A program made the translations under genes and the position numbers. A DNA stretch of 54,688 bases from a virus (Duplodnaviria; Heunggongvirae; Uroviricota; Caudoviricetes): positions 1-54,688 of the IMG/VR virus record IMGVR_UViG_2541047774_000008; one strand, 5' to 3'. Position 1 is the stretch's first letter. Each line of letters starts with the position of its first letter. Of this stretch, positions 20,868-26,861 are shown piece by piece. A model generated the notes under the pieces. The model had not been told where the DNA came from. It made no database searches and saw nothing but the letters and a program-made list of their open reading frames with translations.

Positions 20868-22529
20868 TTACACACCATCAAACGTCGCAAGCCGCTCTTT
20901 GTGGCTGTCGCTCATATCGAATGCAAATTCCTCATGCTCTGCCTGGAATGTGCCAAACGCCATCAGCGCCGCAACGCTCGGGTCTATCTTGTTGGATGAT
21001 TTTTTCTTGTTCGGCTTGATATTGGCGTTCGCGTCACTCTGCATCACAACATTACTCATTGACCAGGCCAGCACCGGATCACCACGATGCACAATCACCT
21101 TCCGGTTAACAAAAACTTCGAACGATTTCGCCGCCGGACTGAAACGAAGGTACGTTTGCGGGAACGGCTCCACCTCAAATCCCGCCCCCTGTAGCTGTGT
21201 TCTCAGGTGAGTGGCGTTCCATGTATCGAAGCCCACCAGCCTGATACTGAAATTCTCTGCATCCACCATGATGTCATCACGGATACGGTCATAATCAATG
21301 CAGTCACCCGGTGTTGTGCGTATCCAGCCCGCCTTTACCCACTGGCGATAAATGGCGCGGTTTTTATTGGCGGGGTTCTGTAACTGAAATTCCGGCAGAT
21401 AGTGACGGGAAACCAGCATAATCTTTTTACCGACCGGAAAGGCATAGCACACGCTGGAAATATCGCTGGTTGATGATAAGTCCAGCCCCACGTAGCACTC
21501 CTGCCCGTATAAATCCGCCTCCGCGAACGTTCCGGCGCACTCCGCCCATGCACCGTTACCCATCCACGGCGTAGCCCCCTGACACCAGATATTGAATCGC
21601 TTGGTGAGCATTTCCACCCACTGCGACGGAATACCCCGCGCTTTCTGGATGGTTGAGGCCAGTTTTTCACGATCGACGGAAACATCGATATTGGGATTCG
21701 CCTTTATCCACATCGCCGGATCGTCAACCTCGCTTTCATCATCCAGCTCGTAAATCAGTACGAACATGGATTCGTTCACCTCTTCACCATCCAGTATCTG
21801 GCAGCAATAGTCGTAGTGTTGTTTACAGGCTGAAACAACGTTGCTCCCCGATGTGGTGATGGCAAATAATAACCCCTCCGGACGCGCCCCCATTCCCAGT
21901 TCAAGCGCGGAATAAACCCCGTTGTCAGGGTGCAGGTGATATTCATCTACAATGGCAAGACTCGGGTTTGTACCTTCAATGGTTGCCGCTTTTGCTGCCA
22001 GTGGCTTTAACAGGCTGTTGGTTTTCGGGTGTATCACCTTGTGTGCCTGAATATTTACCCGCTTTCGTAACGGTCGGGATAAAAGGCACATCTGACGCGC
22101 ATCATCAAACACGATCCGCGCCTGATCACGACTCACGGCGGCGGTGTAAATATCCTGCTGCCCGTTTTCCATAACCAGAAACCAGTTAGCCAGGATAGCG
22201 GCGACCGTGGATTTGGCATTTTTTCGCGGTACTTCAATGAATGCGCTGGTGTATTTGCGCCGTCCGGTGGCCTTAACCTTAAAGCCCAGGATGCACGCAA
22301 AGGCGAACTGCTGCCACGGCTCCAGCTCAATGGGGCTACCACGCATTGCGCCTTTTACGTGCGGACACACCCTGGAAAAGGCAATAAACCGCTCCACGAC
22401 CTCCGGTTCGAACGTGTAAAGGGGGTTTTCAAGGTCATAAAAATACCGTTTAACGGCCTGTTTCAGTCGTTTACAGGCCGTAATTTTGCCGTTTTTTACG
22501 CCTTCTGCGTACTCATGCCAGGCGGTCAA
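20868..22529 (-). CDS. terminase large subunit (island copy, intact)
   Basis: 553 aa with Walker A-like EVPRKNAKST, Walker B-like LAIVDEYH and a C-terminal nuclease domain. Confidence 0.9.
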   Translation of the reverse strand: MTAWHEYAEGVKNGKITACKRLKQAVKRYFYDLENPLYTFEPEVVERFIAFSRVCPHVKGAMRGSPIELEPWQQFAFACILGFKVKATGRRKYTSAFIEVPRKNAKSTVAAILANWFLVMENGQQDIYTAAVSRDQARIVFDDARQMCLLSRPLRKRVNIQAHKVIHPKTNSLLKPLAAKAATIEGTNPSLAIVDEYHLHPDNGVYSALELGMGARPEGLLFAITTSGSNVVSACKQHYDYCCQILDGEEVNESMFVLIYELDDESEVDDPAMWIKANPNIDVSVDREKLASTIQKARGIPSQWVEMLTKRFNIWCQGATPWMGNGAWAECAGTFAEADLYGQECYVGLDLSSTSDISSVCYAFPVGKKIMLVSRHYLPEFQLQNPANKNRAIYRQWVKAGWIRTTPGDCIDYDRIRDDIMVDAENFSIRLVGFDTWNATHLRTQLQGAGFEVEPFPQTYLRFSPAAKSFEVFVNRKVIVHRGDPVLAWSMSNVVMQSDANANIKPNKKKSSNKIDPSVAALMAFGTFQAEHEEFAFDMSDSHKERLATFDGV

Positions 22530-22869
22530 GCTCGTCCTCTTCCTCTGTTTCCGGTGGATTTCTGCGGCGGCTTACCGGGTCAAAACCCAGCAAAGAAGCC
22601 ATTTTGATCATTATTCTTTCCGCGTCAGCCTTTGCGCTCAGGGCGGGGTTTCTGCTCTCGCTGCCCTGACTGTTAACAATGCTGAACCCGCGCGTCGCAA
22701 GGTCTTCGACGGCTTTGCGGTATATGGAGTAGTTAACACAATACAGTTCCAGATTGCTCCAGTCGGCGGGGGTAAGGTCTTCCCGCCCGGAAAGCTGGCG
22801 CGATTTTTCCTTCCACTGCCTGACCGCGATTTCATCCAGGTAAGCGGGGGCTTTTGGTGGTCTTGCCAT
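22513..22869 (-). CDS. terminase small subunit, P27 family (island copy)
   Basis: ORF 22513-23010; start placed at ATG 22869 (MARPPKAPAYL) to match the N-terminus of the prophage TerS (MSGPPKTP); overlaps terL start. Confidence 0.7.
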   Translation of the reverse strand: MARPPKAPAYLDEIAVRQWKEKSRQLSGREDLTPADWSNLELYCVNYSIYRKAVEDLATRGFSIVNSQGSESRNPALSAKADAERIMIKMASLLGFDPVSRRRNPPETEEEDELDRLA

Positions 22870-23157
22870 GTTCTTTTTTCGCCCAATTATTTTCAAAAAA
22901 ATTCCCGTGCACAAAAATTTGAGGAGGCGGTCGGTGTCCGGCAGGGACGGTTTTGTCCTGAAAACCTCCCCCACCCCCTCTGACGGCCTCACCAGCGATT
23001 GCGAAAACATTCCATGACCTCGCGGTCACGGTCGGTTAATCGCTTCGCTGTGGTGCGTTCTGTGCGCCCTGTCCTGTTGGCTTTGTGCCCTGTCTCCTGT
23101 GTCTTCCATAAGTCACGCTGCCTTATCAGTCCACGTATCAGCCTGTTTTGCTCCTGT

Positions 23158-25105: not shown

Positions 25106-25666
25106 TCACAACCCCGCCAGCTCTGCCCAGCGATGACGATTATTTCCTGCCGGGCGTAATTCAGGGTGCTGTGCAAACAACGAACGGTGGGCAATCTCCA
25201 CGCCAGATTCGGGATAAGCAGGCATCGACGTGATCGTGATTTCCCTGAGTTCTGCAGCGGTAACAGTACGCAGATACGGTTTTTGCGCGATATTCCACTC
25301 TTCGCATAATGCGCGAAAGCCAAAGCTCATCCCTGTAATGTCGCCACGCTCCACCAGCGTAAGCACATCTTTTCCAAGCTGGGTATCAGGCGGTGTCAGT
25401 TCAAAACGTAGCCCGGTGTTGTCCTCAGTCAGTACCAGTGTTCCGGATTTGGTGCGCCCCAGCAGTCGGGTATAGTCATGCTCATACAGGCAGCGCACAT
25501 CATTACCCGCCGCCAGATAGTCAGCAAAAGCCCCCAGCGTGAACTGTTCGCGGAATTCGTCCCAGATAATTTCTGAAAGGCTGTTCCAGCGAACGGCATA
25601 ACCCACCAGTTTTTTATCGCTGGCGGTCAGTTCAGATGTACGGATTTCAAAATCGGTATTTTTCAT
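25106..25666 (-). CDS. prohead protease, HK97 family (island copy)
   Basis: ORF 25106-25882; ATG at 25666 (MKNTDFEIR...) with GGAG RBS; GAF...GMSFGF motifs. Confidence 0.85.
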   Translation of the reverse strand: MKNTDFEIRTSELTASDKKLVGYAVRWNSLSEIIWDEFREQFTLGAFADYLAAGNDVRCLYEHDYTRLLGRTKSGTLVLTEDNTGLRFELTPPDTQLGKDVLTLVERGDITGMSFGFRALCEEWNIAQKPYLRTVTAAELREITITSMPAYPESGVEIAHRSLFAQHPELRPAGNNRHRWAELAGL

Positions 25667-25715
25667 CGGTGTACTCCATAAAGCTGAAAAAGGAGGCCGA
25701 AGCCCCCTTTGCTCA

Positions 25716-26861
25716 TTACTTGCCAGCCTGAATTTCCAGAATCTTGATGGCGTTCGAATCCACCACACCACCGCCCAGATATTTCTGGGTATAGATGTTA
25801 ATGAATCCAGGTTCGCTGAAATCCGGACGGGTACGCGTACCGGTTTCATGGTCAACGATGAAATAACCGCGCTTAAAGTCACCTACTGCAATCACACCGT
25901 CCGGCATAAATTCCAGATATTCAACCGGAAGCCCCAGCAGAGAATCAGGATCACCAGCCTGTAAACGATCGCGCCAGATGTAATCACCAGTGGCATTTTT
26001 CAGTTTTTGTGCGGAGGCGGCTGTATTTGAGTTCATCACCCATACAGCTTTTTTGCGGTACTTATTGCGCAGCGTAAATTTCAGGTCAATCAGCATGTCG
26101 GCGCAGAGACTGCCAGTAACTTTTTTCGTCTGGAGCGTACCGAAAGGACGGGTTTTGTCGTTATCCGCAGTGCGCGGAAAAGCCAGGAAACCTTTAGCTT
26201 TTTTCTCGCCATCACCGGAAACCAGATCCGTTTCTTCGGTATCAACGAAAGTGTCGCCAATTTCAGAAGATAACCAGCTCATAATATCGACTTCGGAAAA
26301 ATCGATAATTTCCTGAGTGGTTTTCGGGTAAGCGTAGATCGGATACAGGCGGATACTGACTTCATTCAGTTTTGGGGTTGCCGTCTGGTTACGTGCCGCA
26401 CCTTCTTCGCCGTGTTCAACGACCGCGCCCCCGGCAGAAACCAGTTGCTTAAATTCATTGCTGTGAATGGTTTTAACAGTACAGATTTTACGCATCACCG
26501 ATTCATCAGAAAGCTGACGCATAATTTCTCTGTTCAGTTCCGGGATAACCGTATAACCACCATCAGCCGGGACACTGCCGGACAGGTTGCGGGTTTCCCC
26601 GGTCAGAATGTAAGAGCGTAGTTCGTCTTTGGTGATTTTCTCTTCGACGGAAACACCTGGCTGGTTACGTTCTTCATCCGCAACAGCTTCAAGACGGGAA
26701 ATTTCTGTGTCGAGGGAATCGGCTTTTGCACGCAGTTCATCAAACTGTTTGCCCTCGTCATCGGTCAGACTGCGGTTTTCACTGTCGGCTTTTTCCAGCA
26801 GGGATCGCATCTGGTTTTTCAGGGCGGTTTTTTGCTGGCGGAGTTCGATTAATTTCTTCAT
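25716..26861 (-). CDS. major capsid protein, HK97 family (island copy)
   Basis: 381 aa with N-terminal coiled-coil delta domain and capsid region (GDGEKKAKGFLAF) parallel to the prophage MCP. Confidence 0.9.
   Translation of the reverse strand: MKKLIELRQQKTALKNQMRSLLEKADSENRSLTDDEGKQFDELRAKADSLDTEISRLEAVADEERNQPGVSVEEKITKDELRSYILTGETRNLSGSVPADGGYTVIPELNREIMRQLSDESVMRKICTVKTIHSNEFKQLVSAGGAVVEHGEEGAARNQTATPKLNEVSIRLYPIYAYPKTTQEIIDFSEVDIMSWLSSEIGDTFVDTEETDLVSGDGEKKAKGFLAFPRTADNDKTRPFGTLQTKKVTGSLCADMLIDLKFTLRNKYRKKAVWVMNSNTAASAQKLKNATGDYIWRDRLQAGDPDSLLGLPVEYLEFMPDGVIAVGDFKRGYFIVDHETGTRTRPDFSEPGFINIYTQKYLGGGVVDSNAIKILEIQAGK

Follow-up and report, generated by a model that had tools for sequence, protein, structure and literature searches.

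A capsid and packaging gene module nested in the terL gene of a lambdoid prophage very probably belongs to a capsid-forming, helper-embedded phage-inducible chromosomal island

The Caudoviricetes record IMGVR_UViG_2541047774_000008 of IMG/VR, which was analyzed over its full length of 54,688 nucleotides (hereafter, the window), carries a lambdoid prophage with an HK97-type head and, on the same minus strand, a second set of head and packaging genes at positions 20868 to 26861. We consider it very probable that this second set is the capsid and packaging operon of an approximately 15.0-kb capsid-forming phage-inducible chromosomal island (cf-PICI) that is inserted in the large terminase gene (terL) of the prophage and that belongs to the helper-embedded PICI (HE-PICI) group designated A:Terminase_1:246. 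The original prediction made for this DNA had described the second set as having a non-canonical gene order; this description is correct when the order is compared with that of HK97-like phages, but not when it is compared with that of proteobacterial cf-PICIs, for which the same order is the published standard. The gene order of the island is hence already known and is not peculiar to this locus.

Gene identities in the module were assigned by Pfam, PHROGs and NCBIfam profile matches on minus-strand open reading frames (ORFs; E-values are given in brackets), and start codons were taken from the PGAP annotation of a near-identical Escherichia coli relative (L001). Read along the minus strand from 26861 to 20868, the module begins with the major capsid protein (MCP; 381 aa, 25716..26861; Pfam Phage_capsid, 4.8e-60; phrog_10, 7e-85), followed by an HK97-family prohead protease (186 aa when counted from the PGAP start, 25106..25666, with the longest ORF extending to 25882; Peptidase_S78, 7.2e-44; TIGR01543, 5.5e-38), the portal protein (404 aa from the PGAP start, 23890..25104, longest ORF to 25323; Phage_portal, 8.8e-93; phrog_12, 1e-118), and a gp6-like head-tail connector of the Ad1 type (99 aa, 23598..23897, within a longer ORF at 23598-23984; phrog_40 Ad1, 9.5e-29; NCBIfam TIGR01560, 1.1e-19). 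This connector, for which the Pfam family Phage_connect_1 scored 20.0 bits and hence slightly below its 21.2-bit cut-off, is the sole neck gene of the island. The packaging genes then follow, including an HNH endonuclease (146 aa, 23158..23598; Pfam HNH, 1.3e-09; phrog_144, 1e-44), a small terminase (TerS) of the P27 family (118 aa from the PGAP start, 22513..22869, longest ORF to 23010; Terminase_4, 4.2e-23; TIGR01558, 6.7e-18), and the large terminase (TerL; 553 aa, 20868..22529; TerL_ATPase, 4.3e-26; TerL_nuclease, 4e-53), which is the last gene of the module. These seven identities and their order agree with those given by the original prediction; an eighth, conserved ORF of 61 aa between the HNH and TerS genes (22989..23174; phrog_3173, 2.7e-28), which PGAP annotates in L001 as well as in a related O157:H7 element (L003), had not been listed there.

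All eight ORFs are intact with the PGAP starts, and the spacing between them ranges from -17 to +49 nt, save for one gap of 119 nt directly upstream of terS (22870..22988); this tight packing of intact genes is operon-like. A scan of the module for promoters and terminators found fewer promoter-like sites than were found in shuffled controls. In HK97-type cos phages, the cos site is located between the HNH gene and terS. By analogy with these phages, the 119-nt gap at 22870-22988 represents a candidate cos region of the island. As a separate observation, the linear record of Escherichia phage vB_KppS-Ant (L005; LR881103) starts 22 nt before its terS; this record start (L005 positions 1-23) hints at a cos site near terS, and may also reflect a mere deposit convention.

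The presence of two homologous modules of head and packaging genes in the space of 20 kb could, in principle, confuse an assembler, and the unusual order could then be an artefact, created either by a collapsed or mis-joined repeat or by an annotation that swapped capsid and portal. We regard this explanation as having a negligible chance of being right. The Phage_capsid and Phage_portal matches reported above are unambiguous, such that a mis-assignment of portal and capsid is ruled out. Among 5426 complete E. coli genomes, in which the module was counted when at least 80% of the query was covered in a single place, the same collinear 6-kb module was found in 509, which were contributed by many laboratories; misassembly is thereby ruled out as well. 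Furthermore, the two modules share no nucleotide-level similarity and hence offer nothing to collapse. The artefact explanation is already refuted by the domain matches and by the collinearity in 509 genomes, and the order stands.

With regard to membership in the cf-PICIs, the bioRxiv preprint of Alqurainy et al. in which cf-PICIs were defined (10.1101/2022.09.08.507074) gives the conserved order of proteobacterial cf-PICIs as "capsid-protease-portal-head connectors, then hnh-terS-terL", and the same order serves as a search criterion in a later preprint by the same group (10.1101/2025.02.11.637232). The synteny comparison with described cf-PICIs yielded precisely this order when it was read from the coordinates of the island, which is ordinary for the family; morphogenesis genes first and hnh-terS-terL last is the conserved layout of the family. 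In addition to its own intact genes for capsid, prohead protease, portal, HNH, TerS, and TerL, the island carries a co-oriented left arm of the cf-PICI type, with a tyrosine integrase, an AlpA-type regulator, and a replication module. Its size of 14,971 bp falls within the range of approximately 10-18 kb of cf-PICIs, and neither tail nor lysis families (including holins) were matched by Pfam, PHROGs or NCBIfam among the scanned island ORFs between the att sites. The SatelliteFinder model for cf-PICIs comprises 11 core components, with Types A, B, and C having 11, 10, and 9 of these, respectively (PMC10085698). Counted by hand against this definition, the island has 10 of the 11 (integrase, regulator, replication protein, capsid, protease, portal, connector, HNH, TerS, and TerL) and is a Type B rather than a Type A cf-PICI; Type B is the commonest class in the SatelliteFinder survey (459 of 969; PMC10085698). 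The component that separates the island from the full Type A set is the head-closure adaptor (PF05521), which is absent, only the connector family (PF05135) being present. A tblastn search of the window with the head-closure protein of the O157:H7 element (L003) matched only the helper prophage gene Hc1 (15440-15763, 50% identity) and nothing in the island, where portal and connector overlap by 8 nt (23890-23897) and hence leave no room for a further gene between them.

Protein comparisons point in the same direction. When MCP and TerL of the island were searched by tblastn against 50,697 phage records, satellite-type records matched at 57-82% identity and real phages at no more than 37%, a gap that is consistent with the published finding that capsid and TerL of cf-PICIs form clades separate from those of phages. 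MCP and TerL of the island hence appear to belong with the cf-PICI group, well apart from their phage homologues. The closer matches (57-82%) came from three records of satellite size, from a short fragment that lacks annotation, and from a 106-kb record of Klebsiella, which seems to contain a module of this kind. At the DNA level, only six of the 50,697 records matched the module, the informative ones being satellite-sized records or fragments, which speaks against a real phage that shares the arrangement of the module at this level. The Klebsiella record, phage P12620-1 (PQ569648.1, 106.5 kb), contains, between approximately 90984 and 106354, a cf-PICI-like TerL (82.5% identity, 90984-92642) and MCP (69%, 102271-103419), both under features annotated as hypothetical. 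Since TerL precedes MCP by about 10 kb, as expected for a circularly permuted element, this record may hold, or may have been co-assembled with, a whole circularly permuted cf-PICI.

The ends of the island were located by alignment to the intact terL of phage Evi. Nucleotides 1-1028 of the Evi gene align to window positions 36340 down to 35313, and the corresponding 5' part of the prophage gene (35313..36340, minus strand; 97.1% nucleotide identity) encodes, by Pfam, the ATPase domain and the start of the nuclease domain; nucleotides 1015-1700 align to positions 20355 down to 19670 (95.5% identity), within a 3' part (19612..20341, minus strand) that encodes the nuclease domain (TerL_nuclease profile positions 64-283). 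The two alignments overlap in an exact shared core, TTACCAA. The island between the att cores thus spans 20342-35312, and its in-silico removal yields an in-frame TerL of 585 aa with 567 identities over 594 aligned columns to the Evi TerL. Neither half is a complete gene, and PGAP annotates both as pseudogenes in L001; the island does not bring a replacement sequence, and the helper terL is therefore broken until excision. Both halves of terL and all key genes of the island lie on the minus strand, so that the island has the orientation of the gene that it interrupts. On this strand, attR (20342..20444) consists of TTACCAA (20342-20348) and a doubled motif, GTGTATTGCGCTGTGTATTGC (20424-20444), which was detected as direct repeat D9, while attL (35162..35319) consists of TTACCAA (35313-35319) and a second doubled motif, GTGTATTGCACTGTGTATTGC (35162-35182). 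On that strand, only four GCAATACA sites are present in the window, all of which are within these two doubled motifs. Measured from the TTACCAA core of the reconstructed attP, the motifs have their inner edges at distances of approximately 81-82 nt and 130-132 nt. Together, these ends indicate that site-specific recombination placed the island within the terL gene of the prophage.

This arrangement matches a site that has been described from a different angle. According to Tommasini, Mageeney and Williams 2023 (PMC10111431), HE-PICIs are satellites located inside the late genes of prophages, at 14 sites in nine genes, some of them in the cognate of lambda A (terL); the same source describes an HE-PICI-specific doubled motif, tgTGTATTGCantgTGTATTGCa, with two co-oriented copies approximately 81 bp upstream and 132 bp downstream of the attP center. 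Its supplementary table lists 15-kb E. coli elements with names of the form "...15.A_Terminase_1_246" (e.g., Eco1645.15.A_Terminase_1_246) and the att identity "ttaccaa". The island and the A:Terminase_1:246 group share the orientation inside the prophage terL and the codon of insertion, the 15-kb size class, the att identity TTACCAA, two copies of the doubled TGTATTGC motif, and the lack of a replacement sequence; the island-side attL sequence is identical to supplementary file 5, and that of attR to supplementary file 6, of PMC10111431. The island also shows a late-gene site, the same orientation as its target, disruption of that target, restoration of terL by precise in-silico excision, and the doubled motifs, as expected for HE-PICIs in general, and its early region (28282..33685) agrees with the Integration, Bro, and Replication zones that PMC10111431 describes. 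No difference between the island and the A:Terminase_1:246 group was found in these comparisons, and the island appears to be one more member of it. The concept of the cf-PICI is not used, and the capsid-forming nature of this group is not discussed, in the available portion of PMC10111431; the A:Terminase_1:246 HE-PICI group is nonetheless capsid-forming, which neither this portion nor the available text of the cf-PICI papers spells out.

Distribution data further separate the module from its current site. Among the complete E. coli genomes, the attL junction was found in 36 and the attR junction in 35, while an uninterrupted terL site was found in 901; E. coli 2014C-3075 and ETEC4090 are examples of strains that share these junctions. 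The integrase of the island was also found in 36 genomes, the same number as those with the attL junction, which ties the integrase to the terL site; by contrast, the presence of the module in 509 genomes indicates that it travels with many other integrases. The island integrase may belong to the single clade of HE-PICI integrases, for which its agreement in number with the attL junction, as well as island-side att arms identical to those of published members of the group, gives indirect support.

The helper prophage has the usual HK97 order (HNH, TerS, TerL, portal, protease, MCP, connector), as had been predicted, to which we add that its terL is itself cut in two by the island. Its genes, all on the minus strand, encode HNH (36971-37321; Pfam HNH, 1.9e-16) and TerS (36340-36822; Terminase_4, 2.3e-25) on one side of the island and, on the other side, as identified by Pfam and PHROGs, portal (18177-19418), protease (17549-18235), MCP (16329-17534), the Ad1 connector (15772-16077), the head-closure protein Hc1 (15425-15763), and a gp10-like protein (14979-15428). 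The proteins of the island are homologous to these pairwise, as the original prediction had noted, and are clearly diverged from them, with identities of 36.7% for MCP, 32.5% for portal, 33% for the connector, 40.7% for HNH, 26.9% for TerS, 33% and 29% for TerL against the two prophage halves, and 23% over 121 aa for the protease. Identities of 23-41% to the helper, together with the low identities to real phages reported above, uphold the view that the island is a separately evolved module and not a duplicate of helper genes. Moreover, its order is not a simple circular permutation of that in HK97-like phages, because capsid, protease, and portal are reversed in order while the strand is kept.

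These comparisons bear on the alternative that a recent capture or duplication of helper prophage genes, followed by rearrangement, gave rise to the module, as a case of late-gene capture by an HE-PICI. Tommasini et al. report late-gene clusters captured by some HE-PICIs (PMC10111431), and the best matches of the island MCP among real phages are found in the helper's own family (Evi, 606R7, SfI, and ST64B). Nevertheless, a recent capture is highly improbable; the identities to helper proteins are too low for a recent duplication, which they rule out, no nucleotide-level match exists, and the module occurs elsewhere with other integrases and at other chromosomal sites (509 genomes, versus 36 with the island integrase). 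Capture of the two flanks of the insertion site would also yield the order portal-protease-capsid rather than capsid-protease-portal. A recent capture from the helper is excluded, and an ancient one is possible.

One version of an ancient capture would explain the block order of cf-PICIs in general. If a satellite at or near a helper terL had once captured both flanks, the downstream genes from portal to connectors and the upstream genes for HNH, TerS, and TerL would have been joined in reversed block order, and terL-embedded cf-PICIs would then retain the way of life from which the entire family started. A flank-capture pattern has been seen for one capsid-gene HE-PICI by Tommasini et al. (PMC10111431). 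Any simple version of this scenario, which we consider unlikely, is opposed by the divergence from the helper as well as by the reversed order within the block of capsid, protease, and portal. A milder version is that the head-closure gene could have been lost because the lineage always sits in a helper with a compatible one.

It could also be asked whether a second HK97-like prophage had degraded and left the module behind in scrambled form, as tandem or nested debris with decaying genes. In work that predates the cf-PICI concept, the equivalent element of O157 Sakai, Sp7, was classed as a 'highly degraded prophage' that combines lambdoid and P4 features in a chimeric manner (PMC2669165), and the absence of a head-closure gene from the island would fit such decay. 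However, the eight ORFs are intact, with several overlapping or abutting in a manner consistent with translational coupling, the element has exact site-specific att ends 15.0 kb apart, zones of the PICI type (int-alpA-Bro-rep) are present, and relics of tail or lysis genes are not. Conservation of the layout also extends over 509 E. coli genomes as well as to Pasteurella, Sp7 was observed to be circularized and packaged (PMC2669165), and EcCIEDL933 has proved functional in experiments. A degraded prophage, to which we assign a very low probability, is already largely refuted.

Several observations nevertheless weigh against our interpretation of the island as a functional cf-PICI of the A:Terminase_1:246 group. 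EcCIEDL933, the Pasteurella phage Pmp8, and vB_KppS-Ant all have a head-closure gene, whereas the island does not, and in EcCIEDL933 every gene of the packaging module but 1792 is required for transfer. Because this adaptor gene is missing, the lineage could be defective or could rely on the helper for its head-closure protein. In addition, the iterons that resemble an origin are not adjacent to the replication gene of the island, and the replication gene itself encodes a RepA-type helicase rather than the DUF927 primase of EcCIEDL933. Finally, formation of small capsids, cos cleavage, excision, and use of helper tails would have to follow what has been described for EcCIEDL933, KpCIDSM30104, and 11capE, from which these functions are extrapolated.

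With these points in mind, a working scheme for the cf-PICI can be proposed, in which each step is extrapolated from experiments with EcCIEDL933, KpCIDSM30104, EcCIGN02175, and the HE-PICI 11capE. Upon prophage induction, Int and AlpA would excise the island and thereby repair the helper terL. The island would replicate by means of its RepA-type helicase and GCGGGTTA iterons, and its MCP, S78 protease, and portal would form small procapsids sized for approximately 15 kb. A complex of HNH, TerS, and TerL of the island would cut and package island DNA only, and the Ad1 connector would dock helper tails on the filled head. In other cf-PICIs, adaptor and connector together set tail specificity; on this basis, an island that lacks a head-closure gene may, speculatively, take the helper Hc1, which is 50% identical to the O157 head-closure protein and thus closer than any other island-helper pair. 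Late transcription of the helper, which crosses the HNH and TerS genes and then the 5' half of terL, may also run on into the co-oriented island, as proposed for HE-PICIs by Tommasini et al. (PMC10111431).

The value of these findings for discovery is low, as both the order, a hallmark of proteobacterial cf-PICIs, and the position in terL, an HE-PICI site, have been published; they link two literatures, on cf-PICIs and on HE-PICIs, that describe the same elements, and do not define a new biological kind. For annotation, the value is that the window contains two HK97-type head and packaging modules, one of them in a 15-kb satellite nested in the terL of the other. Prophage callers and PGAP would report a 'defective' prophage with a pseudogenized terminase; the composite is probably fully inducible.

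The remaining genes of the island, which were identified by Pfam, PHROGs, and NCBIfam and which lie on the minus strand unless noted, start next to attL with the tyrosine integrase (33918..35177; Phage_integrase, 1.4e-18; Arm-DNA-bind_3, 1.1e-17), followed by the AlpA regulator (33377-33685) and a Bro-N protein (32741-33319). The next ORF, at 31355-32596 (413 aa in its longest form), matches known families only in its last approximately 50 aa, at the C-terminal end, where an Icd-like cell-division inhibitor domain is found (phrog_6196 and phrog_1743), and the real gene is probably short and the ORF over-extended. This is the stretch of the island least conserved relative to its relatives, with 12-25% of a 19-kb query left uncovered even in the best genomes. 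It is followed by a DUF4222 protein (30401-30700), the RepA-type helicase (471 aa, 28989-30404; AAA_25, 3.1e-44; phrog_906 and phrog_3228, primase/helicase), and SSB (28282-28707). Between SSB and the capsid genes, a cargo slot holds an antisense gene of 168 aa (27148-27654, plus strand) with a GC content of approximately 0.40, which matches only phrog_5789; a hairpin 3' of this gene (27662-27681) scores as a terminator on both strands. PADLOC, Pfam, and NCBIfam identified no known defense gene in this ORF or its neighbors, and L001 has a gene of the ProQ/FinO family in the same slot; the 27148-27654 gene could be an accessory or defense gene.

At the other end of the island, between terL and attR, an iteron-like array at 20634..20786 contains three copies of GCGGGTTA per strand around an AT-rich spacer. 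Six of the 10 matches to this octamer in the window are in this array, while 1.85 would be expected for the whole window, and the same octamer clusters beside the primase gene of the O157 element (L003 19926-20232). The array is a probable replication origin, whose position seems to have shifted to the opposite end of the island, approximately 8 kb from the helicase gene. The helicase resembles the DUF927 primase (710 aa; L003 20263-22395) that the O157 element encodes only in its N-terminal 134 aa, at 66% identity, and hence looks like the product of a domain swap in which the N-terminal part was kept; since both elements carry the same GCGGGTTA iterons, this shared part may be an origin-binding region.

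P4-type immunity RNAs (C4, isrK) were not found in the island at Rfam gathering thresholds, and the only Rfam matches in the window, which are to tRNAs, sok, and DicF, are all in the prophage. These include four tRNA genes that are clustered upstream of the lysis genes (40318-40627; Gly-TCC, Thr-TGT, Lys-TTT, and Met-CAT), a sok antitoxin RNA (44192-44367), and a DicF RNA (49231-49282). A tRNA-Ser(CGA) gene at the far end of the prophage (53708-53797) lies beside a plus-strand ORF of 341 aa (52630-53655), and this end may represent the prophage attachment site.

Among known systems, HK97-like cos phages (HK97 as well as the helper family with Evi, SfI, and ST64B) share all protein families of the module with the island, at identities of no more than 37-41%, and HNH, TerS, and TerL are adjacent in both; the circular phage map, however, reads HNH-TerS-TerL-portal-protease-MCP-connectors, whereas the island has its morphogenesis genes ahead of HNH, in the order MCP-protease-portal, and lacks tail, lysis, and lambdoid regulation genes. 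Pmp8 (OR544139, 15.3 kb) and vB_KppS-Ant (16.5 kb) have the same order from MCP to TerL as the island and are considerably closer to it, with 57-68% identity for MCP and 69-82% for TerL, but have a head-closure gene between portal and Ad1, other integrases, and other hosts, and were deposited as phages rather than as islands. Another related system is the O157:H7 element between phoQ and roxA (L003), which, judging by its structure and by O157:H7 as its host, is presumably of the EcCIEDL933/Sp7 type. EcCIEDL933 (15.4 kb) is similar in size to the island, and the type, as checked in the O157 element, shares with it the succession of int, alpA, and replication genes followed by capsid through TerL on one strand, as well as the absence of tail and lysis genes. 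The order in the O157 element is MCP, protease, portal, head-closure, connector, HNH, small ORF, TerS, and TerL, and the packaging proteins of the island are 57-93% identical to its own (74.5% for MCP, 81% for portal, 83.6% for HNH, 81.7% for the 61-aa ORF, 88.9% for TerS, and 92.9% for TerL), around the range of 50-90% protein identity among cf-PICI family members (10.1101/2022.09.08.507074). By contrast, the integrases are only 42% identical, the attachment site is the prophage terL for the island and, for the O157 element, the intergenic stretch from phoQ to roxA, the GCGGGTTA iterons follow terL in the former and lie beside the replication gene in the latter, and the two also differ in the head-closure gene, the type of replication protein, and the cargo between replication and capsid genes. 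These departures of the island from the EcCIEDL933 prototype are all minor.

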